The notes under the pieces: generated by a model | Told to the model about the DNA's origin: nothing | What the model saw: only the letters and a program-made list of their open reading frames with translations | Database searches by the model: none | Translations under genes and position numbers: made by a program | Source of the DNA: Candidatus Chazhemtobacterium aquaticus | Lineage (GTDB): Bacteria; Patescibacteriota; Microgenomatia; UBA1400; Chazhemtobacteraceae | Direction: 5' to 3' | Assembly (NCBI RefSeq): GCF_009936135.1 | Contig: NZ_CP047901.1 | Span: 216,984-280,983 of the forward strand | Length of the DNA stretch: 64,000 nt | Shown: positions 944-50,177 of the stretch, piece by piece | Numbering within the stretch: position 1 is the first letter of the stretch | Layout: each line of letters opens with the position of its first letter

Positions 944-1045
944 GCACCCAAGCTTGCTGTCAAGCTCAAACAATGTTAAACTACTGACCCAGTCACGGAT
1001 TAAAAAGTTAAATATTGCATTCAGACAAATAATTTAAAAACAACC

Positions 1046-1804: not shown

Positions 1805-1820
1805 ATCTCAACTTTCCAAA

Positions 1821-14199: not shown

Positions 14200-15828
14200 A
14201 TGTCAGCCAAACAAATCACCTACTCTGAAGAAGCCCGAAAAAAACTAAAAACGGGTGTTGATAAACTTGCCCGTGCTGTTGTTACTACTCTAGGCCCTCG
14301 TGGCAAAAACGTCGCCATTGATAAGAAATGGGGCGCTCCCGCTGTTCTTCATGATGGTGTCTCTGTTGCCAAAGAAGTCGAACTCGAGGATCCTTTTGAA
14401 AACATGGGCGCACAGCTTGTCAAAGAAGCCGCCGAAAAAACCAATGACGCCGCCGGTGACGGTACGACCACTGCCACTCTTCTCGCCCAACAGATAGTTG
14501 ACGGAGGCATGAAGGCAGTTGCTGCTGGCAGCAACCCAATGCTTATGAAGCGAGGTATTGATAAAGCCGTTGCGGCAGTTACCACCGAACTTAAGAAAAA
14601 TAGCAAAACAGTCAAGGAATCTGACTGGGAGGCGGTAGCTACTATTTCAGCCCAAAACCCTCAAATTGGTAAAACCATCGCTGACGCCCTTAGTAAGGTG
14701 GGTGGTAAAGACGGTCTGGTTGAAGTCGAGGAGGGAAGAGGTCTGGAGATCGAAACCGAACTTAAAGAGGGTATGTCTTTCGACAAAGGCTACTCATCCC
14801 CATATTTCGTGACTGATCCTGACAACATGGAGGCCGTCATCGAAGATGCCAGTATCCTTATTACTGACCAGAAAATATCAGCCGTTAACGACCTTCTCCC
14901 GTTCCTTGAAAACACCGTCAAAACCACCAAAAACCTCGTCATTATTGCTGACGATATCGAAGGTGAGGCTCTGGCTACTTTAGTTGTTAATAAACTACGA
15001 GGTACCTTTAATGTTCTTGCAGTCAAGGCTCCCGGGTTTGGTGATAATCGTAAAGAAATGCTTCAAGATATTGCCATTCTCACCGGAGGGTCATTTATCA
15101 GTGAAGATACTGGTCGAAAACTAGAGTCTGTCACTTTAGAAGACCTAGGTAGAGCTGATCGGGTAGTTTCCGACAAGGATGCCACTAGAATTATCGGTGG
15201 ACAAGGAAGCAAAGACAGCCTTAATACTCGTATTGCTCAGCTTAAAAATGCTATCTCCAAAACCACCTCAGAGTTTGATAAGGAAAAACTTCAAGAGCGT
15301 CTTGCCAAACTCGCCGGTGGCGTTGCCGTTATTAAAGTTGGCGCTGCCTCCGAGACTGAGATGAACGAGCTAAAGGAAAGAGTTAAAGACGCTGTTGGTG
15401 CCACCAAAGCGGCCATTGAGGAAGGCATCGTCCCCGGAGGGGGAGTTGCTCTCCTTCGTGCCGCCAAAGTTCTCGATTCACTTAAATTCGATAACGATGA
15501 CGAAAAGGTTGGTATCAAAATTGTTGCCGACGCTCTCTCTCAACCTCTCCGCTGGTTAGCCAAAAACTCTGGAGCCGAGGAGGGTTGGGTAGTTAAACAA
15601 GTTGAACAACACCCTGACAAATCTTATGGCTTCAATGCCGTCACCCTCGAATTCGGTGACATGCTATCCGCTGGCATTATTGATCCGGTCAAGGTTACCC
15701 GGGCTGCCCTCCAAAACGCCGCCTCTGTGGCCAGCATGATTCTTACCACCGAAGCGCTCATTACCGAGATTCCTCAAAAAGAAGGGGACAAAGACTCAAC
15801 TCCCAATCCCGGAATGATGGGAATGTAA
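14200..15828 (+). CDS. groEL: Chaperonin GroEL
   Basis: [22 protein letters not shown], the [15 protein letters not shown]-binding motif and the C-terminal GMMGM tail are present. Confidence 0.95.
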
Positions 15829-15856
15829 AATCAATTAGACTAAAGATGTTTAAAAC

Positions 15857-15888
15857 AAGCCTCCTTATCGTGGGAGGTTTGTTTTTAT
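15857..15888 (+). terminator. Intrinsic terminator after groEL
   Basis: AAGCCUCC-UUAUCGU-GGGAGGUU forms an 8-bp stem followed by UGUUUUUA. Confidence 0.6.
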
Positions 15889-15904
15889 CGATATAATTTC
15901 TCTG

Positions 15905-16516
15905 ATGCAATCAACTACGCCAGAACAACATCTCTCTCACGATCCAGTTATCAAATCACTAATCAATCAATATCATCTACCTCCACTAGAGGAGTCAACC
16001 AATCTCTATCTCGACCTAGTCAATATCATCATCAGCCAGCAGCTTTCTGTTAAGGCCGCAAAAAGTATTACCAATCGTCTACATCATTTACTCAACTACA
16101 AATCATCTGCCAAGGTTACTCCCCACCGTCTTCTTAAGCTCTCCGCTGAACAACTTCGCTCCGTTGGCTTATCTCAACCCAAGATCACCTACATCCACCA
16201 CCTTTCCCAATCCGTTATCGACAACCAGATCATAATAGATCAGCTTAAAAAAGCCTCCGACGAGTCCGTTTTTGAGCAAATCACCAAGCTCAAGGGTCTT
16301 GGCCCCTGGTCAGCAGACATGTTTCTCATCTTTTCTCTTCAACGACCTGATATTTTCTCCATCCACGATCTAGGCTTGAGAACCGCCGTTAGTCGCCTTT
16401 ACCATCTCGACCGACAAGATTTTGATGCCATAAATCATCTTTCTCAAAAATGGTCACCTTATCGCAGTCTTGCTAGTCGCTATCTCTGGGCTAGTCTTGA
16501 CAACTCTCCGGTCTAG
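15905..16516 (+). CDS. HhH-GPD family DNA-3-methyladenine glycosylase II-like base-excision enzyme
   Basis: The helix-hairpin-helix Gly/Pro-Asp region LKGLGPWSADMFLIFSLQRPDIFSIHDLGLR is present. Confidence 0.7.
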   Translation: MQSTTPEQHLSHDPVIKSLINQYHLPPLEESTNLYLDLVNIIISQQLSVKAAKSITNRLHHLLNYKSSAKVTPHRLLKLSAEQLRSVGLSQPKITYIHHLSQSVIDNQIIIDQLKKASDESVFEQITKLKGLGPWSADMFLIFSLQRPDIFSIHDLGLRTAVSRLYHLDRQDFDAINHLSQKWSPYRSLASRYLWASLDNSPV

Positions 16517-21047: not shown

Positions 21048-21998
21048 TTGCCTACCATGTTGCGCAAGCTAGTTCCTATTTTCATCTTATCCATTCTTCT
21101 TTCAGGTTGCTCTCTTAAACTACCCAGCCTCACCTCCTCTCAAAAATCTGGCCTTCAAGTAACTTCGAATCCTCAAGCCACCGTCCTTCTTGATGGTCAG
21201 TCGCTTGGTATCACCCCCATTCAAGAAGAGGGTATAAAATCAGGCACTTATACCATTAAGCTTGTTCCGTCTGACAACTCGCTCCAACCATGGGAGACTC
21301 AGATAACTCTAGTGCCTGGTGTTCTCACTGTTATTGATCGAAAATTAGCCGCCTCGCTTGATCAATCGCATGGCTACAGTCTCTCCTTCGAAAAACTCCA
21401 GTCTTCAGATCAATCCCGGCTTGCGGTGACCACCATTCCCGACTCGGTCACTGTTACTGTTGATGGCAATCCTCAGGGCTTCACCCCTGTTTCTCTCGAT
21501 ACTCTCACTGAGGGTGAACACACCATTCTCTTAACCTCGCCAGGTTTTGAAGATAAAACCATAAGAGCCAGGACTGTCGCTGGCTATAGTCTCACGATCT
21601 CCGCTCAATTGGCCAAAAAAGGTTCACCCGACCTATTAGGTCTCAATACCGAAGCCTCCCCATCAGCCTTTTTAGCTACCCCCTCCGCCAATCTTTCGCC
21701 AACCCCTTCATCTCCACCCAAGCCAACCACTACCCCCAGCCTAAAACCTACCGCCAACCTCTCCCCATCTCCCGCTTCTACCTCATCAGCCATTCCCAAA
21801 CCTTACATTGAGATCGATAGCTCTGTTGGCTGGGTTAATATTCGCACTGAGCCAGGTGGCGGCTCAATCATATCTACTGCTAACAATGGTGAGCGTTTTT
21901 CATATCTTAATCAATCCACCAACGGCTATTACAAGATTCAATACTCTCCTACTCAAATAGGCTGGGTCTCTTCTCAATACTCCACTCTCGTAAACTAA
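21048..21998 (+). CDS. Lipoprotein with two PEGA domains, a Pro/Ser/Thr linker and a C-terminal bacterial SH3 domain
   Basis: Lipobox LLSGC. PEGA-like repeats are SNPQATVLLDGQSLGITP and TIPDSVTVTVDGNPQGFTP. The SH3b-like tail is GWVNIRTEPGGGSII...GWVSSQYSTL. Confidence 0.6.
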   Translation: MPTMLRKLVPIFILSILLSGCSLKLPSLTSSQKSGLQVTSNPQATVLLDGQSLGITPIQEEGIKSGTYTIKLVPSDNSLQPWETQITLVPGVLTVIDRKLAASLDQSHGYSLSFEKLQSSDQSRLAVTTIPDSVTVTVDGNPQGFTPVSLDTLTEGEHTILLTSPGFEDKTIRARTVAGYSLTISAQLAKKGSPDLLGLNTEASPSAFLATPSANLSPTPSSPPKPTTTPSLKPTANLSPSPASTSSAIPKPYIEIDSSVGWVNIRTEPGGGSIISTANNGERFSYLNQSTNGYYKIQYSPTQIGWVSSQYSTLVN

Positions 21999-22047
21999 TC
22001 TTCTATCCCCGCCTTTACCACCACACTACTTGATACGACCGTTTAAC

Positions 22048-22980
22048 TTAAGCTACATAAAGAAGTCCTAACACCATCACCCCCCACAACACCACTGTTA
22101 TGATCAGCGGCTTATCAGACAACAGTATTCTCTCCGGGCTTTCACCCTCGTTCTTCTCGTAAATCAACTGCATGTATCGCATCACACCATATACTACCAA
22201 CGGGATTGTTGCCATAAGCCACTTTTCAGATAAAAAAGTTTTTGGTAACAGTGACAGAAAGGTTAAAACCTTACCCTCAAACTCAATTCTTGGCTGATTA
22301 AAAGTAAACAAGGCGTACGACAACCACGAAGCCGTAGCAAACATCGCCGTATAAATATTCAACAGCTCCTCAGTGTATCGTTTCAAAGTCTCCCTGACAG
22401 CTGCAGTGTTTCCGCTTCCACGAAGTAAAGTCATCTCGCTTTTTCTTTTGCCCACAGCCAAAAACAATGAAAGTGAAATCACAGTCAACAAAAACCACAC
22501 ATTCATATGAGCGTCAATGACCACCGCTCCCGCATACACCCTCAAAATATATCCTGTTGCAATCGTAATCACATCCAAAATCGGGATATTTTTCAGCCAA
22601 TAAGTGTACAACAAGCCTGAAACGACTAAATAGGTCAAACATATACCAAAGAAAAACATATTCATGGCATATGCCCAGGCCAAGCCAATTATCACACCAG
22701 CCAACATCGCAAATACTGCTAAAGACACCGGTAACTCACCAGACGCCAAAGGACGTTTTCTTTTAAACGGGTGTTTACGATCAGCCTCTATGTCCAACAA
22801 ATCATTGAAAATATAAACACTCGCACTTATCAAGGTAAATACCACTATTGCCTCCACCACCTTCTCCAACCTGCCTGGCACTAACAACAGACCGCTGAAA
22901 ACCACTGGCGCCAACAACGCCGCATTCTTTATCCACTGTCTCGGTCTCGCCGTCCTAAATAACGCCCATAAGATACCCAT
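22048..22980 (-). CDS. UbiA-family prenyltransferase resembling decaprenyl-phosphate phosphoribosyltransferase (DPPR synthase)
   Basis: RPRQWIKN and NDLLDIEADRKHPFKRKRPLASGE (the Asp-rich UbiA motif in the DPPR-synthase arrangement) are present, with about 8 TM helices. Confidence 0.65.
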   Translation of the reverse strand: MGILWALFRTARPRQWIKNAALLAPVVFSGLLLVPGRLEKVVEAIVVFTLISASVYIFNDLLDIEADRKHPFKRKRPLASGELPVSLAVFAMLAGVIIGLAWAYAMNMFFFGICLTYLVVSGLLYTYWLKNIPILDVITIATGYILRVYAGAVVIDAHMNVWFLLTVISLSLFLAVGKRKSEMTLLRGSGNTAAVRETLKRYTEELLNIYTAMFATASWLSYALFTFNQPRIEFEGKVLTFLSLLPKTFLSEKWLMATIPLVVYGVMRYMQLIYEKNEGESPERILLSDKPLIITVVLWGVMVLGLLYVA

Positions 22981-24008
22981 AACAAAAAGGCTCCTAATAA
23001 TAAACTTACTAACACCATTGTATAAAATTTTTGTCTACTGTCTAATCTTAAAGCCATAAACCCCAACACCGCTGTCACCAACCAATAAAACACGGCCACC
23101 TTTCTCTTTCCCCAACCCAAATCCATCAACTTATGGTGCAAGTGACCCCGATCCCCCCACACTGGAGATTTACCTTGAAATATCCTTCTAATTCCAATAT
23201 AGACAGCGTCTATTAACGGTATTCCTAACACTACCAAGGCGGTTCCAATCTTTGTCGTCGATAGTATTGCCAACGTAGCTAGCATGAATCCTGCAAAACT
23301 ACCCCCTCCATATCCTGGCATACTTTTCTGCGGGTAGAAATTAAACGGCAAATAGCCTGCATAAGAACCCGCCAGAGCAAAAGCCAACACGGCCACCGGC
23401 CATTGAGCCACGTCAGCACTATATCTAAAACTCAACACCCCAATTACCACTCCGGCAACCACCACAATTCCTGGCAACTGTCCGTCAAGACCCTTGCTCC
23501 AGTTGACTGCATTCATCACAAACGGTATCCAAAGCAATGCTAGCAAGTCTGCCAAAACCAGCACTTGCCTCTCTCCTCCCCACGAAATTCCCTTATCTAG
23601 CATAATCACACCACCACCCAAAGGGTTAGTTATATAAGAAATTCCAATTCCAGCGCCTACTACCATCAAGGCTGCCAATAAATTGGTGACCAGTCTTAAA
23701 TATGGACTCAAGTCATAAATATCATCCAAAACACCCACTATCATCACAAGAGCTCCTACCAACATTATGGCCAGTAAATGTTTATCAATAGGCAGTAAGA
23801 CAACTACTGTCAACAACGTCCCCAACACTACCGAAATCCCCCCACCTTTTGGTACTGGCTCCTTGTGAGTGTGTGCTGGATGCTTTGTCCGATTAGGATC
23901 AACCACCCACCCAAATTTCTTATAGACCCTAATCACTACTGGCGTTATCACTCCAGCTATGACTGCAGCTATCAAAAAAGGAAAAATAGTTAAATTCCAG
24001 CTATTCAT
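22929..24008 (-). CDS. Glycosyltransferase family 4 polyprenyl-phosphate sugar-1-phosphate transferase (WecA/MraY-like)
   Basis: Carries the LGVLDDIYDLSP and NAVNWSKGLDGQLPGIVVV (NAxNxxDGxDGL) motifs and is polytopic. Confidence 0.8.
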   Translation of the reverse strand: MNSWNLTIFPFLIAAVIAGVITPVVIRVYKKFGWVVDPNRTKHPAHTHKEPVPKGGGISVVLGTLLTVVVLLPIDKHLLAIMLVGALVMIVGVLDDIYDLSPYLRLVTNLLAALMVVGAGIGISYITNPLGGGVIMLDKGISWGGERQVLVLADLLALLWIPFVMNAVNWSKGLDGQLPGIVVVAGVVIGVLSFRYSADVAQWPVAVLAFALAGSYAGYLPFNFYPQKSMPGYGGGSFAGFMLATLAILSTTKIGTALVVLGIPLIDAVYIGIRRIFQGKSPVWGDRGHLHHKLMDLGWGKRKVAVFYWLVTAVLGFMALRLDSRQKFYTMVLVSLLLGAFLLWVSYGRYLGRRDRDSG

Positions 24009-24362
24009 TTACAGCACCACCATTATTACTCTAATCAGGCTTAAAACCATTAACAGCTCGCACGTTACTCCACCCCAAATCAAAACCCGTTTCAACAACT
24101 CCTCACCACCCCCAATCAACCTCACCAACAATCCGTTCACAATCATCACTCCTCCAAAAGTAAACACCATCACCCCTAACCAAGTTTTTTCAATTAGTTG
24201 TTGTTCTCCCCAGGGCATCGAGAAAAACCAAGGCATTTCCGGCGGTAACCTCTGCCAATTGACTACCAACAAAATCACCGCCATCAACCAACAGCCCAAG
24301 CCCGTCAACATTCCCGCCATCACCCCTTTCTCACTTAGCCAACCTCCTTTATTCATAAACAC
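24009..24362 (-). CDS. Small 3-4 TM membrane protein, function unknown
   Basis: ORF of 117 aa. The stop abuts the upstream gene start (24008/24009), implying an operon. Confidence 0.4.
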   Translation of the reverse strand: MFMNKGGWLSEKGVMAGMLTGLGCWLMAVILLVVNWQRLPPEMPWFFSMPWGEQQLIEKTWLGVMVFTFGGVMIVNGLLVRLIGGGEELLKRVLIWGGVTCELLMVLSLIRVIMVVL

Positions 24363-24370
24363 ATTCTACC

Positions 24371-25945
24371 TCAATCACTCGCTTCCCAACGTCGCCACAC
24401 CACTGCCCCGCCATCTTCCATTACCTGCAGGTAGTATGCCGATAGATATGCATCAAGCTCTCTATCAACCAGCTCACCCTCTATGGTCACAATGTATTTT
24501 GGTCCCTCTTTAGTCAGGGCAGCCATTGTTTCACTCATACCATCAAAATCCCTAATGTGATAATTCACCGTATATCTACCAACTGGCAATCTATCACTTA
24601 AAACATATATCGCCGGTTCGGTCCCCCACACAAAAATCTTAGCGTCCTGATCGGTTCTTTGTCTAATATACTCAGCTACCCTCATATTTCGCACCACTCC
24701 ATTCCCAAAGAAATCATAAAAATCTTCTCTGGTTTTTTGGCCAGTAACATACATAACAAAATTGACATAATAATCAACACTCTTGTAATACCAGTACTCG
24801 TATCTCCATATGGCTACTCCCACAGTCAGCGCCAAAACGAAAGCCACCCCTGCCTTTATCAATTTAAATCTATCAATTACTAGTCCTATCAACAAGCTGG
24901 CTGGTGCCACAATCTCAATTAGATAATGTGGATACGGCCGACCAGCTAAATTAGCTCCAAACAGACCCCCTACCAACCATAAACTAGCCAGTCCAAACTC
25001 TCTGCCCAACCTCTTTCTTAAACACCAAATAGCTATCAGCCAAACCAAGAGCACGACTCCTCTCTGAAACAACCCGTTTTCATAAAATGCCCCACTTCCC
25101 CCCTCCCAAGAAGATAAATAGCCAATATTTTGCCCCAAAGCAGAGCGCAAATACCTCTCACCAGCTCCTTCCGCTACATAATAAACAATACTTAACAACA
25201 CCGGAACCAGAAACCCTATTAACACGAGCCAAAGCCTTCTATCCACAATCCACTTAAACCACCCACGCCAATCACTCACTTGATAAACACTTAACCAAAA
25301 CAACACCCCGAACAAATCAAACAAAACCGGCACCTTAAACAAAAATCCTAAAGAAAACAAAACCCCAGCCATTATCCACTTTTTCCAAACTATGACTCTT
25401 TTATTACTCTCAACCCACATCAACAACACTCCCGCAGTCACTGGCATAATCATAAACACCTCACCATTGGCGATATTGCCCTCAGTTAACGGTATTGATG
25501 TAAAAACTCCAAATACACCCGTTACCAACACCATCAACCACCTACTCTTAATTAACTTTTCTGCCAGCTTCCATACCAACACCACATTCACCAAGTTCCA
25601 AGCCATCAAAATCAATCTAAACCACATCACACTCCCTGCCATTGCCGCTACTAAATACAATAAAGGCGGCTTATTATCATGAATATCTCGGTAAAAAACT
25701 AATCCCTTGCGCAAACCCTGACCTAAGGTTAAGTAAATGTCCTCGTCAGCATACCGGTTAGGCTCAAATAATCCTGGAATCCTCAAAACTGCCACCAGTA
25801 ACAAAATAAGAATCAGCCCTTCATTTTTCTCTATTCCAGTCTTAAGTTTTAACCACCAATCCCGAAATAACAATCTTTGCTTTCCCATATCTTCATCTAG
25901 TCTACTAAATCTTACACCAGCCCAAAAGCTCCAAAACCCTTTCAC
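24371..25945 (-). CDS. GT-C fold polytopic glycosyltransferase (ArnT/PMT/Emb-like, polyprenyl-phosphate-sugar dependent)
   Basis: About 12 TM helices. There is an early acidic ADEDIY loop motif and the general ArnT-like architecture. Confidence 0.55.
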   Translation of the reverse strand: MKGFWSFWAGVRFSRLDEDMGKQRLLFRDWWLKLKTGIEKNEGLILILLLVAVLRIPGLFEPNRYADEDIYLTLGQGLRKGLVFYRDIHDNKPPLLYLVAAMAGSVMWFRLILMAWNLVNVVLVWKLAEKLIKSRWLMVLVTGVFGVFTSIPLTEGNIANGEVFMIMPVTAGVLLMWVESNKRVIVWKKWIMAGVLFSLGFLFKVPVLFDLFGVLFWLSVYQVSDWRGWFKWIVDRRLWLVLIGFLVPVLLSIVYYVAEGAGERYLRSALGQNIGYLSSWEGGSGAFYENGLFQRGVVLLVWLIAIWCLRKRLGREFGLASLWLVGGLFGANLAGRPYPHYLIEIVAPASLLIGLVIDRFKLIKAGVAFVLALTVGVAIWRYEYWYYKSVDYYVNFVMYVTGQKTREDFYDFFGNGVVRNMRVAEYIRQRTDQDAKIFVWGTEPAIYVLSDRLPVGRYTVNYHIRDFDGMSETMAALTKEGPKYIVTIEGELVDRELDAYLSAYYLQVMEDGGAVVWRRWEASD

Positions 25946-25985
25946 TTTTCAATCAACTGATAGCCAAACAAACTCATGCAGACCC

Positions 25986-27503
25986 TTATACCTTCTCGGT
26001 CACTCTATACTCTAAATATCTTCCCATCATTAGTCTTGTATGAGCCTCCAGACCGGGTAATGCCGTAAACAAAAGACCAACTACTGGTAATAACACAAAC
26101 TCAAACGGCGACAAAACCTTTCTCCATAAGGGCAAATCTTTCACTCCTGGCCTTGCTTTCATGTCAACAAACACTATCAATAGCAAACCAATCAACGATG
26201 CTGTCAGAATGGCACTCGCCACCTGCGGCAATGTCTTTCCCATTATCGTTCTTGCGAAATCTTCATTAAGCAGGGGTGGTAATGTGGCGCCAAGTGTAAT
26301 TGCAAACCAGTTTACTGGCCACAAGAAATGATCCTCTAATACCTTTAATACCCTTAAAGTCTTGTCCCAAAAATCTGCTCGCTGATCCATGATATACCCC
26401 TTTAAAAAATATGCATCATCACTTGCTCCCCACGCCCACCGCTTCACTTGTTGATAAGTGTTATTAAAGGTTTTTATAAACGAAGTTGACTCAGCCGCGT
26501 CGGCATATATGGGTAAAAAGATTGGCTCGACCTCCACCTCTCCTCCAGTGGCAAAATACGCCTTAAAAAACATTCGATAATCCTCCGGGATAACATCAGT
26601 ATCCCAATAACCCACCTCATCCATTAACTTCAGTGACAAGGTGTATGTCGAAAAATTTATTAATCTTTCAGGTCTCATCAACATTCCCATCTGGACAATT
26701 GAAGAGGCTCGATTAAACACCCTCATCAACCAAGGAATTTGTTCAATATTGTTGTAATAAAGAATTGCCCCTTGCCATACTCGCCTATAGCGATGAGGAG
26801 AATCTAGAAACTTATATGTCAAAGCTGCCATATGATTGGGGTGAAGCTGAACATCGGCGTCTGCTGAAGATATTGTCATGTAATCAATATCCCAGTCGTC
26901 TTTATGATTTTTCTTCCACACCCTTACAAACTCCTTAGCTCCCCATGCCGCGTTAGACGACTTACCTACTACCTCACCAGCAATACCAGGAGGATGAACT
27001 GCAAATATCAAATCATCAAACACCCCCTCAAACCGCTTCTTAAGGGCTTTCATTCTTGGCTCATTAATCTCCTCACCTGCACGTTCCTCAAAAGCTAACA
27101 CTGGAATTATTTGCTTTGCCGGAAAGGTCTGTTTAGCCAAAGCTTCCAAGTTCCTCTCTAATGTATGTAGTGGTTCTTTATAGTTAGGAATCACCACCAC
27201 ATGTCTAACCCTTTTCCAATCCTTAAAACCTCTTACATCCCCCATCCAATCATATTTTTCTGACGCCCTGATCCTGTAATAAGCCAACAACGACAATACT
27301 GCCATAGACACAGATCTATAAAACCAATACACATAGAACGCAATAATGTAATATGCCACCACCACGGGAATAAAAAACGAGCCCCACACCGGGAACAAAA
27401 TCAAGTTCCACGATACAAATCCGGGCAGTATTTCAAGTAGTCTTTGCGACAACCTCGGATATCTAATCAAAAACAATCGAAAAGGAATCAATACTCTGTT
27501 CAT
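25986..27503 (-). CDS. Membrane-integrated processive family-2 glycosyltransferase (QxxRW motif)
   Basis: VVIPNYKE, the DAD motif and QQVKRWAWG (Q-x-x-R-W) are present, with N- and C-terminal TM bundles. Confidence 0.65.
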   Translation of the reverse strand: MNRVLIPFRLFLIRYPRLSQRLLEILPGFVSWNLILFPVWGSFFIPVVVAYYIIAFYVYWFYRSVSMAVLSLLAYYRIRASEKYDWMGDVRGFKDWKRVRHVVVIPNYKEPLHTLERNLEALAKQTFPAKQIIPVLAFEERAGEEINEPRMKALKKRFEGVFDDLIFAVHPPGIAGEVVGKSSNAAWGAKEFVRVWKKNHKDDWDIDYMTISSADADVQLHPNHMAALTYKFLDSPHRYRRVWQGAILYYNNIEQIPWLMRVFNRASSIVQMGMLMRPERLINFSTYTLSLKLMDEVGYWDTDVIPEDYRMFFKAYFATGGEVEVEPIFLPIYADAAESTSFIKTFNNTYQQVKRWAWGASDDAYFLKGYIMDQRADFWDKTLRVLKVLEDHFLWPVNWFAITLGATLPPLLNEDFARTIMGKTLPQVASAILTASLIGLLLIVFVDMKARPGVKDLPLWRKVLSPFEFVLLPVVGLLFTALPGLEAHTRLMMGRYLEYRVTEKV

Positions 27504-28283
27504 CTAATTCATTTTATTAAACAATTCTAGAGCGTTTTTACTTGTTATTTCGTTAATTTCTTCAACTGACTTTTCATACAAACCCGCCAAGAAGCTCGCC
27601 ACTATTCTAACATTTTTCGGCTCATTCACCCTTCCTCGCAACTCTCCAGGAGCCAAATAAGGCGAGTCTGTTTCCAAAACCAGTCTCTCAAGAGGTGTTT
27701 GTCTAACCAAATCAACCAAAACCCCATTTTTCTTGTAAGTTACATTTCCCCCAAAGCTAACATAAAAACCCTTGCTCAACACCAATTTTAGAAAATCCCC
27801 CCCGCTCGACCAACAATGAAACTGGCCCCTAGGTACGCGATCCATGGACTTGATTACCTCCATCATCTCCTCCTCAGCTTCTCTCATGTGTATTACCACC
27901 GGCAAACTCATCACAACAGCCAACTCCAACTGTTTTTTGAACAGCTCGACCTGCGCCTTCTTTGTCTTTTTCTGCTTGTCCCAATAAAAATCCATCCCGA
28001 TCTCACCAATTCCCACTACCCTTTCCTCACCTTTTATCAATTTCACCAGCTTGTCAATCTCGAGCTTGAATTCTGGTTCATTAATTACTTTCTCCGGATG
28101 AACACCAACCAGTGCGTAAACACCTTTGTATTGTTTAGCAATGCTCTTTACCTTGATCGCATCTTGTAAGTCAACACTGGGTACGATTATTCTCTCCACT
28201 CCCACATCCTCCGCCGACCTAACCACCTCATCCAACCTTCCCTCGAATGCTTGATCGCTCAGATGAGCGTGCGTATCTATCAT
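27504..28283 (-). CDS. tatD: TatD-family metal-dependent DNase/hydrolase
   Basis: MIDTHAHL plus the downstream His/Asp/Glu pattern is present. The start was taken at the internal Met. Confidence 0.8.
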   Translation of the reverse strand: MIDTHAHLSDQAFEGRLDEVVRSAEDVGVERIIVPSVDLQDAIKVKSIAKQYKGVYALVGVHPEKVINEPEFKLEIDKLVKLIKGEERVVGIGEIGMDFYWDKQKKTKKAQVELFKKQLELAVVMSLPVVIHMREAEEEMMEVIKSMDRVPRGQFHCWSSGGDFLKLVLSKGFYVSFGGNVTYKKNGVLVDLVRQTPLERLVLETDSPYLAPGELRGRVNEPKNVRIVASFLAGLYEKSVEEINEITSKNALELFNKMN

Positions 28284-28305
28284 CTTCAGACAGTATAATC
28301 CTTTT

Positions 28306-29160
28306 ATGGCGCCCAAAACCATTATTATCACCGGATGTTCCTCGGGTCTTGGTTACCATACAGCCATTTATCTTGCCCAACAAGACTATCAAGTTTATGC
28401 CTCAGTTCGTCGCAACTCAGATCTTAATCTTTTTACTCACCTTCCCCCCCAACACCAACCCCAACCTTTCTTACTCGATCTGCGTTGGAGCCAATCTAGG
28501 ATTTCAAAAATCATCTCCTCACTACCAACACCACCTGAGGTTCTAATTAACAACGCAGGCTACGGATTCTTTGGTACCCTTGACACCATTTCAGTCGATC
28601 ATCTCCAGCAACAACTCGAAGTTAATCTCTATGGAACCTACAAGGTTATCAAGGCTGTCCTTCCCTCAATGAGGTCTCGTCGAGCCGGATTAATAATAAA
28701 CATCAGCTCCATTCTTGGTTTATTCTCTTTACCAGGCTACGGGCCATACTCAATCTCCAAGTTCTCTATCGAAGCCTTGACCCAGACCTTACGTCACGAA
28801 GAAACACCATTTGGTATCAAGACTGTTTCTCTCAATCCAGGATCATTTAGTACAAATTTCTGGAAAAACAGTCAGCTACCCCGCTTAAACTCAAAGAGAA
28901 CACTTTCTCCTCACCAGCAGTTTAATTCAAACTTAAAAGCATCTTTCGCCAACCCGAGACGTCAACATACACGATCTCACCCTCTCCAAGTTGCCAAAGT
29001 AATTAATCAACTTATCTCCACCCAAAACTATCCTGCCAATGTTCCAATCGGTCTTGACGCCCAGTTACTCTATTATCTCCACCGACTTCTTCCAAGACCA
29101 CTCTTCTTTTGGATTGTTAAAACCATTGCTCACGCCCCCCGTCCTCAACAAAACGCCTAA
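28306..29160 (+). CDS. Short-chain dehydrogenase/reductase (SDR) family oxidoreductase
   Basis: TGCSSGLG, NNAG and the catalytic YxxxK block (YSISK) are present. Confidence 0.8.
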   Translation: MAPKTIIITGCSSGLGYHTAIYLAQQDYQVYASVRRNSDLNLFTHLPPQHQPQPFLLDLRWSQSRISKIISSLPTPPEVLINNAGYGFFGTLDTISVDHLQQQLEVNLYGTYKVIKAVLPSMRSRRAGLIINISSILGLFSLPGYGPYSISKFSIEALTQTLRHEETPFGIKTVSLNPGSFSTNFWKNSQLPRLNSKRTLSPHQQFNSNLKASFANPRRQHTRSHPLQVAKVINQLISTQNYPANVPIGLDAQLLYYLHRLLPRPLFFWIVKTIAHAPRPQQNA

Positions 29161-30596
29161 CTCTTCAGTCTCGGAAACAACTGCTCACCTTTAACAACCT
29201 GTTTATTTCCAAAAATCTTCATTATTTTCTCTGCCGTTTCTGGCATAAACGGCTGCAGACTAACACCGATGTTCCTTATTCTTAACACAATCTCTTCCAA
29301 TGCAAAATTCTTATCCCTACCACTCAACTTCCAAATCTCCTTTTGATTAATCAAAGCATTTGTCTGCCTAACCTCATCCCAAATTATATTTATCGCCTTA
29401 TCAAACTCATAACCATCTAAGGCTTTTGTAATCAAATCATTCCTTCCTTCCCACTTTAGAATCTTATCTTCATCAATTTTAATCTCCAGTCCGTCACACA
29501 TCGCCATCGTTCGCGCAATCAAGTTTCCCAAGCCATTCGCCAAATCATTCATATAGTTCTCCTCAAAACGCTCCTGTGTAAAATCGCTATCGTCAAATGG
29601 ATTTATTTTGGCCAGCAGAAAATATCTAACCGCATCCGTTCCGTACTTATCTGTATACTCAATCGGATTAACCACATTGCCAAGCGATTTACTTATCTTT
29701 TGCCCCTGCGAAGTTATAAAACCGTTAATTAAAATCTGTTTGCTATTATCAAGGTCAGCCGCCATCAACATAGCCTGCCACATCGCCGCTTGCTGTCTCA
29801 AGTTATCCTTGCCCGCAATTTGAAACCCTGGCCACCACTGACTGTAATTTTCTAAATCATCAGGCCAGCCTAATGTCGAAACATAATTGACCAAAGCATC
29901 AAACCATACATACATTACCTGGCTATCATCACCAGGAACCGGCACACCCCAAGGCATTTTTTCTCTTACTCTGGAAATAGAAAAATCACTAAGCCCGCCT
30001 TCTACAAAATTTCTTATTTCTTTAAGTCGATTAGCTGGTACCACAAATTCACCACGCTCCTTATACAAACTCAATAGCCGTTCCTGAAAAGCCGAAAACT
30101 TAAAAAAATAATTTTCCTCTTCGATTACTTCTAACTCTTTGTTCGGGTGAATTGGACATCTACCATTTTCCAACTCAGAATCTTGTTTCTCAAGCTCGCA
30201 ACCAACACAATACTTAACCCGATAATTTTTTTTGTAAATATATCCATTTTCTTCCACCCTTCGCCAAAACTCCTGAGCCGCCATCCGGTGGTGCTGATCT
30301 GTGGTTCTGATAAACTTGTCATAAGACAAATTCAACGCTGACCTTAACAGCTCAAATTTGCCTGCATACTCATCAACATATTTCTGAGGATCCATTTTTC
30401 TTGCAAGCGCCATCTGGAAAATTTTTTGCCCGTGTTCATCCGTCCCGGTATTAAAAAATACCCTTTCCCCCAATAAACGATGATATCTGGCTAAAACATC
30501 AGCTCTCACTATCTCTAAGGCAAAACCGATATGCGGCTCTGCGTTTACATAAGGTAGAGTCGTTGAAATATAATATCCTCGCTTCATTCTCCTCAT
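29157..30596 (-). CDS. metG: Methionine--tRNA ligase (short form)
   Basis: PYVNAEPHIGFA (HIGH-like), a CxxC...CP zinc knuckle and KISKSLGN (KMSKS) are present. Confidence 0.85.
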   Translation of the reverse strand: MRRMKRGYYISTTLPYVNAEPHIGFALEIVRADVLARYHRLLGERVFFNTGTDEHGQKIFQMALARKMDPQKYVDEYAGKFELLRSALNLSYDKFIRTTDQHHRMAAQEFWRRVEENGYIYKKNYRVKYCVGCELEKQDSELENGRCPIHPNKELEVIEEENYFFKFSAFQERLLSLYKERGEFVVPANRLKEIRNFVEGGLSDFSISRVREKMPWGVPVPGDDSQVMYVWFDALVNYVSTLGWPDDLENYSQWWPGFQIAGKDNLRQQAAMWQAMLMAADLDNSKQILINGFITSQGQKISKSLGNVVNPIEYTDKYGTDAVRYFLLAKINPFDDSDFTQERFEENYMNDLANGLGNLIARTMAMCDGLEIKIDEDKILKWEGRNDLITKALDGYEFDKAINIIWDEVRQTNALINQKEIWKLSGRDKNFALEEIVLRIRNIGVSLQPFMPETAEKIMKIFGNKQVVKGEQLFPRLKS

Positions 30597-30619
30597 ATTG
30601 TATCTAACCCAACCAACCT

Positions 30620-30985
30620 TTATCTAGGTAAAACTTTTTTTACCAAGTCAGATATTTTTCCGCTCACTTCATCTGCCCATTGCTCGGCCTTAATCCTATT
30701 CAAAGCAGACTGAATTCCTGGATTTCCCATTTGCTCAGCCACTGAGGCAATTGTCGCCGAACTCACCTTCAAATGGTTCTTGATATCCTCATAACTTCTT
30801 CCCTTATCTAAATAAACTGCAATTGCTAAACGTTTAGCCATTGCAGTTAACTCCGAACTCGTCAGCAAGTCATCCATCACAATCTTCACCTCTCGAGGAT
30901 CTTTTATATCCGCCATCAACCCAAAAAGCATCTTATAAATTTGACTCTCAATTGTTCTATTTAACCGCCTGCTCGAAACCTGCAT
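30620..30985 (-). CDS. TrpR-related YerC/YecD-family DNA-binding protein
   Basis: LTSSELTAMAKRLAIAVYLDKGRSYEDIKNHLKVSSATIASV fits the TrpR-like HTH. Lies 23 nt downstream of its neighbour metG. Confidence 0.55.
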   Translation of the reverse strand: MQVSSRRLNRTIESQIYKMLFGLMADIKDPREVKIVMDDLLTSSELTAMAKRLAIAVYLDKGRSYEDIKNHLKVSSATIASVAEQMGNPGIQSALNRIKAEQWADEVSGKISDLVKKVLPR

Positions 30986-36000: not shown

Positions 36001-36098
36001 AATTCAAAGACCACTGCTGGCCTCAAGGTATACCGCAATACTCTAGTGAACAACTATCTCTACTCAAAACCACTGACGGTAACTCAAAGGATAGATAA
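32994..36098 (+). CDS. UvrD/Rep-family SF1 helicase fused to a C-terminal PD-(D/E)xK RecB/Cas4-like nuclease with a Cys cluster (AddA/AdnB-like single polypeptide)
   Basis: The helicase carries VMVIAGPGTGKT (Walker A) and DEYQDTN. The C-terminus has RIDLVD...VIDYKTGK nuclease motifs and CQSCEFKDHC. Confidence 0.75.
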   Translation: MTKQPKLTPAFQKALDSLNPAQREAVTSIEGPVMVIAGPGTGKTQIIATRIANILRQTDTDPSAILALTFTDSGATAMRERLISLIGPDAYKVHISTFHTFASGVIQSFPEYFIRSQSAQPLADLERYQIINQIIDDVQLELLKPINAPHYYTSAIISSIQTLKREAIDPEELASVLKLQLKKLEKDKDDLSKTEFSNQQKNLTKNLDLLKIYQAYQQALEKTGRYDFEDMINWVIDAFTTNNELLSIFQERFQYFLADEYQDTNSAQNQILTLLTSFWGPQANLFVVLDDEQSIYRFQGASLENALNFKNSFPQAKIITLTDNYRSQQLILDAARSVINNNTISLQRSFPEIKRELKARTNSPVRKINIHAASHSLLENLYLAKEISQLISSGTSPEDIVIIARNNADLLPVSDFFNHYKIPHQILGGQNILNTLVVKYFVKLLRVTHQSRQAIEDLDLFILLHYPFMEINPLDILKLSRLAAKNKATILDTINSLSESNSDIEQPQKFIDFIQKLATWNELDSNHIFTETAQLILEQSSLLDWLLSQKDSPEHLKNLNAFFEMIKQLNHNDAKLNLASFLNSLDLMIENNIIISPPDVDLTTDRVTLTTAHKSKGLEWGHVYIVNCIDGKWGNQSTRELIKLPPNILQNSHHAPHDQIEDERRLFYVAMTRAKDSIHISYPLSHLSYGRTQTTIPSQFIHELPQKLVNQKNTQPDQDEINQLLQKLITPSSDKISSPESAFLNSVLANFRLSVTALNSYLECPYKFKLNTLLRVPKAKESYLSFGTAVHAALERFHNQFKTEAKLPSKDFLITHFSTALQREIMTESDYHARLKQGKKVLSAYYDLHQNDFTPPLFTEKFFGYGFSSVTLDDIPLAGKIDRIDLVDPNNQTVRVIDYKTGKRKTRGQIEGNTQDSDGAYKRQLVFYQLLTDLDSSFSPKVVQTELDFVESPQQEKKTGKEVFTITQEEVEELKNVIRSTMKDIRSLKFNRTKDYSICQSCEFKDHCWPQGIPQYSSEQLSLLKTTDGNSKDR

Positions 36099-40569: not shown

Positions 40570-41655
40570 ATGTCTCGTTCTAATAACATCTTCTCTCGTC
40601 TGAAACGAAAACTGCCTCAACATTCATCAAAAATCAAACTCACACTTCTGCTTGCAGGACTAGGTCTGGGCATTTTTTTTCTCTACTCTCTTGTTGCCCC
40701 ACTAACCCACCTGGTCCAAACTCTTCTTAAGGGTCCCTCTGCTATTATCTCGTTTACTCAAGACGCATCCCAGAACCTCAAGACTACTCAAGGTCGTACC
40801 AATATTCTTCTTCTCGGTATGGGCGGAGAGGGTCACGAAGGTGCCCTTCTTACTGACTCAATCATTGTAATTTCCTACAACCACGACCAAAAAGCTGCCA
40901 CCCTTATTTCCCTGCCCCGAGATCTGTGGGTCGACTCTCTCAAAACGAAAATTAATGCTGTTTACTACTACGGTGAGCAAAAACAAGCCGGCGGCGGACT
41001 CATCTTAGCAAAATCTGCCGTCGCCGAAATCACCGATCTACCCATTCATTATGGATTTGCCATTAATTTTGATGGATTCAAGGAGGCTATTGATCTAGTT
41101 GGCGGAGTCGATGTTGATATCAAGAGAACCTTTGACGACTATCGTTATCCCATTCCTGGTATGGAGAATGCTTATCCTGAAGAGCTCCGTTATGAACATT
41201 TACACTTTGATGCCGGCCTAGCACATCTTGACGGAGAACTTGCCTTAAAATATGTTCGCTCTCGCCACGCTCAAGGAGAGGAGGGGACTGACTTCGCCAG
41301 AAGCCAAAGGCAACAACAGGTTCTCATTGCCTTCAAAGACAAGCTTATCTCAAGTAAAACCTTGCTTGATTTACCCAAAATCAATCAACTTCTTGGTCTT
41401 TATCAAGTCTACATCGATACCGATATTCTTGACACCGAGTACGCTTCCTTTGCCAAAATTGCCCTAAACCTCAAATCTGACAAGATCCGCTCAATAAGCC
41501 TTGCTACTGACGACTCCAAAACCGGCGAAATCGGCATCCTTGAGGTTCCTCAAGATAAGCAGCCTTACCAAAATCAATGGGTTCTCATCGCCAAAGACAA
41601 CAACTGGAATGCCCTAAAACTATACATTCAAAACCAACTCAATCAACAAGACTAA
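40570..41655 (+). CDS. LCP (LytR-CpsA-Psr) family cell-wall glycopolymer ligase
   Basis: One TM, then TNILLLGMGGEG...TDSIIVISYN...ISLPRDLWV, which is the LCP core. Confidence 0.8.
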   Translation: MSRSNNIFSRLKRKLPQHSSKIKLTLLLAGLGLGIFFLYSLVAPLTHLVQTLLKGPSAIISFTQDASQNLKTTQGRTNILLLGMGGEGHEGALLTDSIIVISYNHDQKAATLISLPRDLWVDSLKTKINAVYYYGEQKQAGGGLILAKSAVAEITDLPIHYGFAINFDGFKEAIDLVGGVDVDIKRTFDDYRYPIPGMENAYPEELRYEHLHFDAGLAHLDGELALKYVRSRHAQGEEGTDFARSQRQQQVLIAFKDKLISSKTLLDLPKINQLLGLYQVYIDTDILDTEYASFAKIALNLKSDKIRSISLATDDSKTGEIGILEVPQDKQPYQNQWVLIAKDNNWNALKLYIQNQLNQQD

Positions 41656-43652: not shown

Positions 43653-43661
43653 AATTTAATC

Positions 43662-44930: not shown

Positions 44931-45041
44931 CTCATTCTAACTAAAGACAACACTTTCTTCCATCAATAAATCACAAAACAGCAAACTAAAACAAACAACA
45001 AATCCTTGAAAAACAACCTATCCTTCAACTCTATAACATCA

Positions 45042-50161: not shown

Positions 50162-50177
50162 CTCTCTTTACCTCTCT

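Follow-up and report, generated by a model that had tools for sequence, protein, structure and literature searches.

Extracytoplasmic pentofuranose glycosylation by 'three-component' systems, with Citrobacter youngae O1/O2 ORF12-15 as the prototype, is widespread, and its pathway logic has been shown by experiment (Kelly et al., PNAS 2024; PMC11127046). These systems contain a PRPP-using UbiA-type polyprenyl-phosphate phosphoribosyltransferase and a GT-C glycosyltransferase outside the membrane; epimerases are optional, and systems without one add ribofuranose (Ribf). In an annotated Lactococcus plasmid example, GT-C-like, DPPRS, HAD and GtrA genes adjoin an LCP gene. The mycobacterial and corynebacterial system, in which DPPRS is the first committed enzyme of the DPA pathway, comprises the UbiA protein Rv3806c, the PAP2 protein Rv3807c, DprE1/DprE2, the GtrA-like Rv3789, AftA/B/D, EmbA/B/C, Glf, GlfT2, WecA and Lcp1.

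Here, we analyze a 64,000-nucleotide stretch (the window) of the 801-kb genome of Candidatus Chazhemtobacterium aquaticus (Microgenomates), in which an earlier note had described an operon-like block of glycopolymer genes resembling the mycobacterial arabinogalactan toolkit. Our preferred reading, to which we give a probability of about 0.55, is that the core of the locus is a polyprenyl-phosphate-dependent pentofuranose glycosylation module conserved across the class Microgenomatia.

Gene content of the locus

All seven open reading frames of the block were found with the coordinates and strands previously assigned to them, under GenBank gene names close to those in the earlier note. They are listed here with two further genes of the window:

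22048..22980, minus: UbiA-superfamily polyprenyl-phosphate 5-phosphoribosyltransferase (DPPRS/PPPRS type), 310 aa
22929..24008, minus: MraY/WecA-superfamily polyprenyl-phosphate sugar-1-phosphate transferase (GT4 in Pfam naming), 359 aa
24009..24362, minus: small three-helix membrane protein, distantly DUF1648-like, 115-117 aa
24371..25945, minus: GT-C fold glycosyltransferase (ArnT/PMT-like), 505-524 aa, start probably 25888
25986..27503, minus: membrane-embedded processive-type GT2 (cellulose/hyaluronan-synthase-like), 505 aa
27504..28283, minus: TatD-family metal-dependent hydrolase (PF01026, TIGR00010)
28306..29160, plus: classical SDR oxidoreductase (adh_short)
40570..41655, plus: LCP-family glycopolymer-to-peptidoglycan ligase (PF03816, TIGR00350)
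43662-44930: Amino_oxidase/DAO-type flavoenzyme, noted earlier as 'Glf-like' (NCBIfam PRK07233)

The motifs and the tight minus-strand spacing also checked out: TatD/GT2 and small membrane protein/GT4 abut (0 nt), GT2/GT-C and GT-C/small membrane protein are 40 and 8 nt apart, and GT4 and UbiA overlap by 52 nt. The proposed family calls were matched by UbiA (PF01040), Glycos_transf_4 (PF00953), Glyco_trans_2_3 (PF13632), TatD (PF01026) and adh_short (PF00106), with the GT-C reached only through homologues that carry PMT_2 (PF13231). A block of polyprenyl-phosphate-dependent glycan enzymes remains the reading of the cluster.

Sequence comparison supports the window UbiA as a DPPRS-type polyprenyl-phosphate phosphoribosyltransferase, as the earlier note had proposed. 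NCBIfam NF008978 scored 212.9 bits (cut-off 207) and NF008977 228.3 bits, under its cut-off of 234; DPPRS models overall reached 143-228 bits versus less than 60 for all other UbiA models. The top PDB match was Mtb Rv3806c (8j8j, E 1.5e-34), both motifs (RPRQWIKN and NDLLDIEADRKHP..RPLASGE) are present, and NCBI annotates the protein as DPPRS. Annotated DPPRS of Haloterrigena, Chondrinema, Rhodococcus and Lactococcus matched it at 138-179 bits, with about 32% identity to actinobacterial DPPRS (tblastn). Ten of the 12 PRPP-binding residues of Rv3806c are retained; a one-residue insertion costs the protein its counterpart of Q135, a Gln that contacts ribose O3, and K208 is not conserved. Across 40 CPR homologues, the positions matching R22, K28, Y70, N73, D77, K87, R90, Y138, K143 and Y157 do not vary. 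In Rv3806c these residues contact the pyrophosphate, Mg2+ and 5-phosphate of PRPP, and the 5-phosphate contacts K28, Y70 and Y157 are not conserved in prenyltransferases (PMC10994848).

That the enzyme is instead an aromatic prenyltransferase of the MenA, UbiA or heme O synthase type, with no sugar role, is extremely improbable. Pfam gives the generic UbiA family alone, and '4-hydroxybenzoate polyprenyltransferase' is the label that many homologues receive from JGI pipelines, but models for heme O synthase, UbiA, MqnP and ChlG scored just 15-59 bits, placing the protein outside the quinone and chlorophyll groups. The invariant 5-phosphate contacts argue the same way, and the host has neither a respiratory chain nor quinone use (PMC7143001).

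The GT4 is likewise supported by sequence as a member of the WecA/MraY superfamily. It matched PF00953 at 82 bits, the WecA model TIGR02380 at 96 bits (cut-off 326) and the MraY model at 50.6 bits (cut-off 192), and MraY proteins are its nearest solved relatives (E 9e-13). Its sequence contains HLHH, which resembles the HIHH motif of WecA.

The small membrane protein has three predicted transmembrane helices and a conserved TM1-TM2 loop motif (LPPxxPxxYSxPWGExQL in the alignment). It is found in all clusters, always stand-alone across 461 of them (91-178 aa), and 5 of 33 members matched PF07853 (DUF1648; best E 3e-5). This DUF1648-like protein, the only cluster member without an assigned role, has no catalytic-looking invariant residues.

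As a 524-aa protein, the GT-C had no Pfam, NCBIfam or PDB sequence match of its own; the GenBank start at 25888 (505 aa) is probably the true one. Its AlphaFold model (pLDDT 94) has a clear GT-C fold with closer likeness to ArnT, PMT and ALG3 than to Emb or Aft, and an acidic loop motif is present. The GT2 carries QVKRW, an instance of QxxRW, and is a membrane synthase of the BcsA/HAS (cellulose/hyaluronan-synthase) type, so divergent that it falls outside every curated family (PgaC model, 19.9 bits). A GlfT2-like role is not supported; GlfT2 is of the soluble type. Unlike synthase-dependent systems (BcsA, class I hyaluronan synthase, NodC/chitin synthase), the window GT2 lacks a PilZ domain and a BcsB-like partner.

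Among the flanking genes, TatD (PF01026, 244.6 bits; TIGR00010, 251 bits) directly follows MetRS in relatives, and metG-tatD pairing is common in bacteria; TatD is probably a co-oriented neighbor belonging with MetRS, not the glycan genes. Gene callers place its start at 28283 (259 aa), so that it does not overlap the SDR. The SDR, encoded on the other strand, is an insertion that separates MetRS from TatD in the window lineage, and occurs near the cluster in just 3 of about 83 related genomes, with orthologues (40-45% identity) there only in L030 and L031. The LCP gene (PF03816, 112.8 bits; TIGR00350, 91 bits, cut-off 62), 12 kb away, may act downstream as a partner. The window's MurJ gene and its two FemAB genes were also confirmed.

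Conservation across Microgenomates

The order GT2-[GT-C]-small membrane protein-GT4-UbiA recurs in species-level Microgenomates genomes. Among the species-level loci whose upstream sequence is long enough, the small membrane protein-GT4-UbiA core is present in 49/49, a recurrence that is more than chance. In all of these loci the small membrane protein/GT4 and GT4/UbiA pairs are directly adjacent or overlapping (by 4 and 52 nt, the latter the median where GT4 adjoins UbiA), implying co-translation. GT2 is present in 46 and GT-C in 29; the remaining 20 (about 40%) lack a GT-C in the cluster. The GT-C-small membrane protein-GT4-UbiA unit is unbroken despite neighboring gene insertions (L008, L019) or loss of GT2 (L060), and some clusters (L007, L039, L033) hold a second GT-C of about 435 aa. 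The order of TrpR-like, MetRS, TatD, PEGA, GAPDH and PGK genes is also kept across the class, and because the whole region is syntenic, conserved order alone is a weak sign of a functional link.

Outside CPR, the closest DPPRS found (168-179 bits) are on plasmids of Chondrinema litorale (NZ_CP111066) and Haloterrigena (NZ_CP149788), where they adjoin GT-C genes of the GT39 type; the second GT-C of L007, L039 and L033 is a homologue of the Haloterrigena GT39 (E 3e-24). Chondrinema has DprE1-like and DprE2-like genes beside DPPRS, and in Haloterrigena an epimerase and a PHP phosphoesterase are present; all of these, like the second GT-C, are missing from the window. Annotations also pair DPPRS with GT-C in Rhodococcus, Lactococcus and Rhizobium. 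The earlier note considered such a pathway unexpected here, but DPPRS and GT-C clusters in Lactococcus, Bacteroidota, rhizobia and haloarchaea make it less so (PMC11127046).

Rival readings of the cluster

A mycobacterial-type arabinogalactan pathway would combine a DPPRS and DprE1/DprE2 donor route, galactofuran synthesis by Glf and a GlfT-like GT2, and an Emb/Aft-like GT-C for arabinan. One window does hold DPPRS, a WecA-like enzyme, GT-C, GT2, SDR and LCP ligase, in an order superficially like the canonical Rhodococcus locus glf-glfT2-PAP2-DPPRS-aftB. However, Rhodococcus DprE1, Glf, GlfT2, PAP2, GtrA, AftA, AftB and Emb had no match in six-frame translations of the window and 83 related loci. 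The SDR, proposed as a DprE2-like epimerase subunit, is generic (adh_short, 120 bits; PRK06914, 186 bits, as top NCBIfam match; 17-beta-HSD1 as top PDB match), aligns with Rhodococcus DprE2 at 24.7% identity over 81 aa (28 bits) and is missing from the locus in nearly all relatives; we reject it as DprE2, and its part in the pathway is doubtful. The supposed Glf-like flavoenzyme is of the amine-oxidase type (Amino_oxidase/DAO, PRK07233), with no GLF domain and no match to a genuine Glf query, and is rejected as UDP-galactopyranose mutase. The GT2, too, is a BcsA/HAS-like membrane synthase. The analogy breaks down at the arabinose and galactofuranose steps; an arabinogalactan pathway is largely refuted for the window and very unlikely.

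The same donor could serve a protein acceptor: the PMT/ArnT-like GT-C would O-glycosylate type IV pilin, or surface proteins rich in Ser/Thr, with a pentofuranose, in the manner of Pseudomonas aeruginosa TfpW and its D-Araf; we regard this as unlikely, if credible. Pilin arabinosylation by way of a DPPRS homologue has been cited (PMC11127046). Pilus genes (PilN-like) lie in the window, and the convergent downstream neighbor in every locus encodes a PEGA-SH3 surface protein whose linker is rich in Pro, Thr and Ser (densest 40 aa 70% S/T/P in the window, about 56% median in relatives). Yet linker richness is uncorrelated with a GT-C in the cluster, the lipid- and glycan-acceptor enzymes ArnT, ALG3 and GPI-MT1 match the GT-C as well as Pmt4 does, and the close linkage of UbiA with both a polymer synthase and an initiating enzyme of the WecA-like kind favors a glycan as the acceptor. 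Alternatively, the order could be frozen synteny without a common pathway: the GT2 would produce an exopolysaccharide of its own, the GT4 would initiate some other glycan, and UbiA would supply a GT-C elsewhere. The conserved housekeeping order, the 20/49 clusters without GT-C, and the separation (L008, L019) or loss (L060) of GT2 fit this account, and HAS/BcsA-type synthases are not known to need a lipid-linked primer. Five genes in a row all acting on polyprenyl-phosphate or membrane glycan substrates, the 4- and 52-nt overlaps in essentially all genomes, and recurrence of DPPRS-GT-C adjacency in unrelated phyla nonetheless make it decidedly improbable.

A putative lipid-linked ribofuranose pathway

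The best reading is that a GT-C working outside the membrane draws on a pentofuranose donor carried by a lipid; most likely the cluster makes a lipid-linked ribose donor used to decorate a surface glycan. On the cytoplasmic face, UbiA would move 5-phosphoribose from PRPP onto polyprenyl phosphate, an activity suggested by its family membership and conserved active site. A phosphatase would then remove the 5-phosphate and a flippase carry polyprenyl-P-ribofuranose to the outer face. Neither phosphatases (PAP2, HAD, PHP) nor known flippase types (GtrA, SMR, MATE) were found in the window or 83 related loci, which leaves these two required steps without a candidate. The GT-C, with its fold and acidic loop motif, may hand the pentofuranose to an extracytoplasmic acceptor, a role that a GT-C encoded elsewhere would take in genomes without one in the cluster. 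The WecA-like enzyme, translationally coupled to UbiA, would start a polyprenyl-PP-linked glycan and the GT2 make or extend a beta-linked polymer; one or other product would probably serve as acceptor, and its later attachment to peptidoglycan may fall to the LCP ligase. Because the cluster has no conserved epimerase alongside it, the added sugar is most likely ribofuranose rather than arabinofuranose.

Three-component systems are the nearest known counterpart, sharing the PRPP-using UbiA-type transferase and the GT-C outside the membrane. In contrast to them, the window cluster lacks phosphatases of the HAD (PRP) and PAP2 types as well as MATE, SMR and GtrA flippases, its ArnT/PMT-like GT-C is not similar in sequence to those of Lactococcus or Rhizobium, and it adds the conserved DUF1648-like protein, the coupled WecA-like enzyme and the BcsA/HAS-like GT2. 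With the mycobacterial system it shares DPPRS, a WecA-family initiating enzyme, a polyprenyl-P-sugar GT-C and an LCP ligase in the genome; it differs in having no detected DprE1, DprE2, PAP2, GtrA, Glf or GlfT2 homologues, a GT-C nearer ArnT/PMT than Emb/Aft, a membrane rather than soluble GT2 and a predicted sugar that is ribose, not arabinose. The window has the opening step of mycobacterial arabinan synthesis in common without the parts needed for arabinogalactan, and its cluster is best read as a new form of the three-component pentofuranose kind that probably adds ribofuranose.

A DPPRS-type protein in a conserved gene cluster

The window derives from Candidatus Chazhemtobacterium aquaticus Ch65, a Microgenomates/CPR bacterium with a genome of 801,504 bp, and its UbiA-family protein matches the NCBI entry for this organism at 100% identity; several metagenome contigs carry the same locus. 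The seven ORFs described in the earlier note were all found where it had placed them, and Pfam and NCBIfam agreed with its family calls (UbiA, Glycos_transf_4, Glyco_trans_2_3, TatD and adh_short). Automatic annotation already names the individual genes correctly.

Genes of the cluster and its surroundings, with GenBank/RefSeq names in quotation marks and, where counted, occurrence among the 49 related loci with at least 6.5 kb of upstream sequence
22048-22980, minus: UbiA protein, 'decaprenyl-phosphate phosphoribosyltransferase' (DPPRS in PGAP); 49/49
22929-24008, minus: GT4, 'MraY family glycosyltransferase / Und/dec-P GlcNAc-1-P transferase'; 49/49
24009-24362, minus: small transmembrane protein, 'DUF1648 domain-containing protein'; 45/49, plus 4 divergent copies
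24371-25945, minus: GT-C, 'ArnT family glycosyltransferase'; 29/49
25986-27503, minus: GT2, 'glycosyltransferase family 2 protein'; 46/49
27504-28283, minus: TatD
28306-29160, plus: SDR, 'SDR family oxidoreductase'
40570-41655: LCP ligase
43662-44930: flavoenzyme

The UbiA protein scored 228.3, 212.9 and 143.1 bits on three NCBIfam models of DPPRS, a polyprenyl-phosphate 5-phosphoribosyltransferase (EC 2.4.2.45); the match to the equivalog NF008978 (212.9 bits) exceeds its cut-off of 207, and that to the sister model NF008977 (228.3 bits) falls narrowly under its cut-off of 234. Models for heme O synthase, UbiA, MqnP and ChlG reached at most 59 bits, and the grouping with quinone or chlorophyll prenyltransferases that the earlier note had named as fatal to its assignment was not observed. 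The only PDB relatives were two structures of the Mycobacterium tuberculosis DPPRS Rv3806c (E 1.5e-34).

We compared residues using the PDB alignment, the Rv3806c residue roles of PMC10994848 and an alignment of 40 Microgenomates homologues. Rv3806c residues R22, K28, Y70, N73, D77, K87, R90, Y138, K143 and Y157 are conserved in the UbiA protein and invariant in all 40 homologues. These include the Mg2+/pyrophosphate site (N73 and D77 of the NDxxD motif, the K/R cluster R22, K87, R90 and K143, and Y138), which aligns identically and corresponds to R12, N59, D63, K73, R76, Y125 and K130 in homologue numbering, and the 5-phosphate contacts K28, Y70 and Y157 (K18, Y56 and Y144), which aromatic prenyltransferases lack according to the structure paper (PMC10994848). 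K208 of Rv3806c is not conserved and is a glutamate in the window protein, where a one-residue insertion (YLVVSGLLY) has also removed the glutamine equivalent to Q135, a ribose O3 contact; the family consensus retains it (YLxxQxLY). On these sequence comparisons, the predicted DPPRS-type identity of the window protein stands.

The minus-strand genes are tightly packed, with gaps of 0 nt (TatD/GT2), 40 nt (GT2/GT-C), 8 nt (GT-C/small transmembrane gene) and 0 nt (small transmembrane gene/GT4), and the GT4 and UbiA genes overlap by 52 nt. Gene callers start TatD at 28283, giving no overlap with the SDR gene, and GenBank starts GT-C at 25888, giving a protein of 505 aa. A promoter and terminator scan of 21800-30800 returned counts no higher than in shuffled sequence and is uninformative about operon structure. 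GC skew is negative across the whole window (1-64000) and extreme (−0.03 to −0.52, mostly −0.3 to −0.5) regardless of gene strand; the published strand composition disparity of this genome and of Collier- and Beckwithbacteria accounts for it (PMC7143001).

In a scan that took a single genome for each species, 289 genomes encoded a close UbiA relative. Among the best 80, those with a named lineage all belong to Microgenomates/Patescibacteria (Collier-, Woese-, Chisholm-, Beckwith- and Cerribacteria), a statement limited to named records since many have placeholder titles only. ORFs were called in the related loci (numbered with the prefix L) and searched with the window proteins, revealing a nearly universal order of TrpR-like, MetRS, TatD, GT2, GT-C (where present), small transmembrane protein, GT4, UbiA, a convergent PEGA-SH3 gene and GAPDH. 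Gene order by itself is weak functional evidence, since housekeeping genes with no relation to the cluster are just as syntenic. More weight is carried by the overlaps (median 52 nt for GT4/UbiA and 4 nt for small transmembrane gene/GT4 in the related loci) and by the survival of the GT-C to UbiA block through rearrangement in L008, L019 and L060.

Some clusters carry additional genes (L007 8655-10004; L008 8101-9408 and 6270-8051; L019; L039; L086). One, placed between the genes for GT2 and the main GT-C, encodes a second GT-C (about 435 aa) that matches PMT_2 and shares homology with the GT39 protein adjoining haloarchaeal DPPRS (E 3e-24). Another, on the opposite strand in L008 and L019, encodes an ABC_membrane+ABC_tran exporter of MsbA/PglK type that could be a lipid-linked glycan flippase. 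Neither gene occurs in the window. In the Chisholmbacteria-like L009, genes for an intein-containing UvrD/PD-(D/E)XK helicase and for LAGLIDADG endonucleases sit within the syntenic block (1-3737, 5896-6906 and 15453-16100).

The glycosyltransferases and the arabinogalactan comparison

The GT-C protein (524 aa) has no sequence match of its own in Pfam, NCBIfam or the PDB. It has more than 1,800 homologues, all from Patescibacteria where the source is named, some of which reach PF13231 PMT_2 or bear the name GT39. The catalytic acidic residues of GT-C enzymes sit after the first membrane helix, and an invariant Y65-x-D67-E68 motif lies just there in the window protein; a second invariant motif, R336-P-Y-x-H-Y, would plausibly be a phosphate-binding element, both roles being putative. 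With its many membrane helices and an acidic motif in extracytoplasmic loop 1, the protein has the fold of ArnT/PMT-like GT-C enzymes of the GT39/GT83 type. Comparison with known enzymes gave table figures of 21.6 for both GPI-MT1 and ALG3, 19.9 for both Pmt4 and ArnT (388 aligned residues for ArnT), 19.1 for AglB, 14.3 for AftA, 12.7 for AftB, 11.8 for AftD and 8.7 for EmbA. The window protein is thus a GT-C, and on these figures ArnT and PMT come nearer to it than the Emb and Aft enzymes do. Its family HMM did not match the GT-C proteins adjoining DPPRS in Lactococcus, Rhizobium, Chondrinema, Haloterrigena or Rhodococcus.

GT2 has the features of the processive BcsA/HAS/chitin synthase class: D, DxD, ED and QxxRW motifs, with a GT-A domain that packs against a transmembrane channel. 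D215xD217, E307-D308 and Q352xxR355-W356 are invariant in 58 homologues with 59-84% identity to it. It is a synthase-type enzyme and no analogue of GlfT; the earlier note had itself listed this outcome as counting against its proposal.

GT4 belongs to the PNPT (MraY/WecA) superfamily (PF00953, 82 bits against a cut-off of 27). Among curated models the nearest is WecA TIGR02380, on which its 96 bits are far under the cut-off of 326; it is no MraY equivalog (50.6 bits against a cut-off of 192), and among solved structures MraY proteins come nearest to it. The small transmembrane protein (117 aa) has three predicted helices and a conserved loop motif, LPPxxPxxYSxPWGExQL. A Pfam scan of 33 homologues returned some weak matches to DUF1648, a domain with no function attached. 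Its invariant residues beyond the start methionine are prolines and leucines only, making it unlikely, on its sequence, to be an enzyme. A search for fusions that might hint at function found none, all 461 clusters being stand-alone proteins of 91-178 aa.

The earlier note had proposed an arabinogalactan-like pathway for the window. We searched six-frame translations of the window and 83 related loci with annotated proteins, taken as references from public records to which the UbiA protein had led: glf, glfT2, PAP2, DPPRS, aftB, emb, aftA, dprE2, dprE1 and gtrA from Rhodococcus ruber; a GT-C-like protein, DPPRS, HAD, GtrA and LCP from a Lactococcus plasmid; and further proteins from Rhizobium sp. 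CCGE531, Chondrinema litorale and Haloterrigena. The DPPRS proteins were the only references to match (61-179 bits in the window). No match was obtained in the window or the 83 loci for Glf, GlfT2, AftA, AftB, Emb, GMC oxidase or epimerases, for the phosphatases (Rhodococcus PAP2, Lactococcus HAD, Haloterrigena PHP), for the flippases (GtrA from Rhodococcus and Lactococcus, Rhizobium SMR) or for Rhodococcus DprE1 (nothing at E<=0.01). The small transmembrane protein, being DUF1648-like, is neither GtrA nor SMR. Single-sequence phmmer negatives are short in reach, as the Lactococcus LCP missed the genuine LCP of the window; we therefore draw the absence of PAP2, HAD and GtrA mainly from Pfam scans of window ORFs of at least 120 aa, among which no PAP2 or HAD was found.

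The SDR, read earlier as DprE2, aligned with DprE2 over only 81 aa (24.7% identity, 28 bits). It is a classical SDR whose best matches are generic (PRK06914 at 186 bits, 17-beta-HSD1). Its gene lies between MetRS and TatD in the window and L031 only, is 3 kb away in L030 and is absent at L007-L009; confinement to these three lineages marks it as a lineage-specific insertion. In the window and the 83 loci, neither enzyme of the proposed DprE1/DprE2 conversion step was found. We also weighed whether the SDR could act as the sole epimerase, in the manner of ORF13 of C. youngae, and rejected this, as ORF13 is a GalE-type extended SDR and the window protein is classical and missing in most relatives.

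The flavoenzyme described as Glf-like is an Amino_oxidase/DAO-type protein (NCBIfam PRK07233, 365 bits) without a GLF domain, and its PDB matches span the FAD-binding motif only. Past its first enzyme, DPPRS, the arabinogalactan analogy is unsupported, and the finding is no demonstration of an arabinogalactan-like wall in CPR bacteria. Rhizobium pentofuranose clusters include an FAD (GMC) oxidase other than DprE1, and by analogy a role of the window flavoenzyme in sugar-lipid oxidation is conceivable.

Further genes lie elsewhere in the window:
41652-47880, minus: possible second envelope locus, with the PRK07233 FAD protein, a 12-helix DUF2298/'chlor_Arch_YYY' membrane protein (415 bits) and proteins of 365 and 586 aa without family match
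47884-49620 and 49736-51441, minus: large secreted-type protein (purple-acid-phosphatase-N, CarboxypepD_reg, Big_13 and cupredoxin-like domains), then genes for small proteins, one PilN-like, with a probable role in type IV pilus assembly
36064-37898 and 55475-56857, minus: a tandem pair of FemAB-family genes that probably act in forming peptidoglycan cross-bridges, and a GH39 glycoside hydrolase; the genome paper (PMC7143001) notes just five such hydrolases, this one included
11156-13672, plus: 838-aa ATPase of DUF87/TrwB/TraG type (VirB4/coupling-protein-like) with S1 and DUF8128 domains in precomputed Pfam, an unusual combination

A proposed pentofuranose pathway and its acceptor

The UbiA gene lies 1.4 kb from the GT-C gene on the same strand, a pairing shared with the three-component pentofuranose glycosylation system. 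The best-supported reading, by analogy, is that the module would follow two schemes established by experiment, that of Kelly et al. (PMC11127046) and the mycobacterial DPA pathway. UbiA, whose family and active site are observed, is predicted to convert PRPP and polyprenyl phosphate into polyprenyl-P-ribose-5-P. Dephosphorylation and then flipping of polyprenyl-P-ribose would follow, steps for which there is no candidate. The GT-C, with its established fold, would then transfer the pentofuranose on the outer side of the membrane from a presumed lipid donor to a presumed acceptor. Characterized systems deliver Araf with DprE1/E2 or Xylf with an ORF13-type epimerase (PMC11127046); since none of the genes conserved with the cluster encodes an epimerase, ribofuranose would be the default sugar.

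TatD was considered as the missing 5-phosphatase, prompted by a PHP metallo-phosphoesterase in the haloarchaeal cluster, and rejected: its gene comes after MetRS, a position it has in many bacteria, and it matches the TatD/YchF exonuclease subfamily strongly, at 251 bits.

As a conjecture, the WecA-like GT4 and the synthase-type GT2 probably provide an acceptor glycan, which the LCP ligase could link to peptidoglycan. Two Chisholmbacteria-type loci retain UbiA, the small transmembrane gene and GT-C with an altered GT4: it is absent from L075 (507-3650) and split into two ORFs in L009 (12001-13129), indicating that UbiA may not strictly require the WecA-like enzyme.

A live alternative is that the acceptor is a protein, and the equal standing of Pmt4 and ArnT in the GT-C comparison is consistent with it. 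A candidate O-glycosylation substrate is the PEGA-SH3_3 surface protein (21048-21998, plus strand), the convergent neighbor of UbiA in nearly all related loci examined, whose conserved Pro/Thr/Ser-rich linker is 70% S/T/P over 40 aa. However, linker richness does not track GT-C presence (medians 0.56 and 0.57, Mann-Whitney p 0.064), the trend being opposite to that expected.

Relation to known systems and significance

DPPRS-plus-GT-C modules are known or annotated in Corynebacteriales, Pseudomonas (pilin Araf), Citrobacter and other Gram-negatives, rhizobia, Lactococcus, Bacteroidota and haloarchaea. Because they are so widespread, their occurrence in CPR is less surprising than the earlier note had held. 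On this subject the genome paper says no more than '29 glycosyl transferases', with no gene tables in its supplements (PMC7143001), and our literature searches combining DPPRS, decaprenyl or pentofuranose with CPR, Patescibacteria or Microgenomates returned nothing relevant. Four features, none mentioned in the literature searched, appear to be new: conservation of the module across the class Microgenomatia; an accessory set with a DUF1648-like partner and without the recognizable phosphatase and dedicated flippase (MATE/SMR/GtrA) of the three-component pentofuranose system; a GT-C family that, judged by its HMM, stands apart from those adjoining other DPPRS genes; and tight coupling to a WecA-like enzyme and a synthase-type GT2.

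We tentatively propose, with a probability of roughly 0.3, that Microgenomates, which are ultra-small and host-dependent with genomes of about 0.8-1 Mb, universally keep a lipid-linked pathway for ribofuranose or another pentofuranose that modifies either a surface protein or an essential glycan of the envelope, using a previously unrecognized GT-C family and with the usual phosphatase and flippase replaced, possibly by the DUF1648-like three-helix protein. If true, this would define pentofuranose glycosylation of a new architecture, with its sugar as a surface hallmark of this CPR class. The finding also takes the recently defined PRPP-to-lipid-to-GT-C pentofuranose route (PNAS 2024) to a new phylum with different accessory parts. 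CPR/Patescibacteria envelopes are almost uncharacterized, although these cells live attached to other cells or depend on them, and a putative pentofuranose donor pathway in at least 289 species-level genomes of less than 1 Mb suggests a surface glycoconjugate important for survival or host contact.
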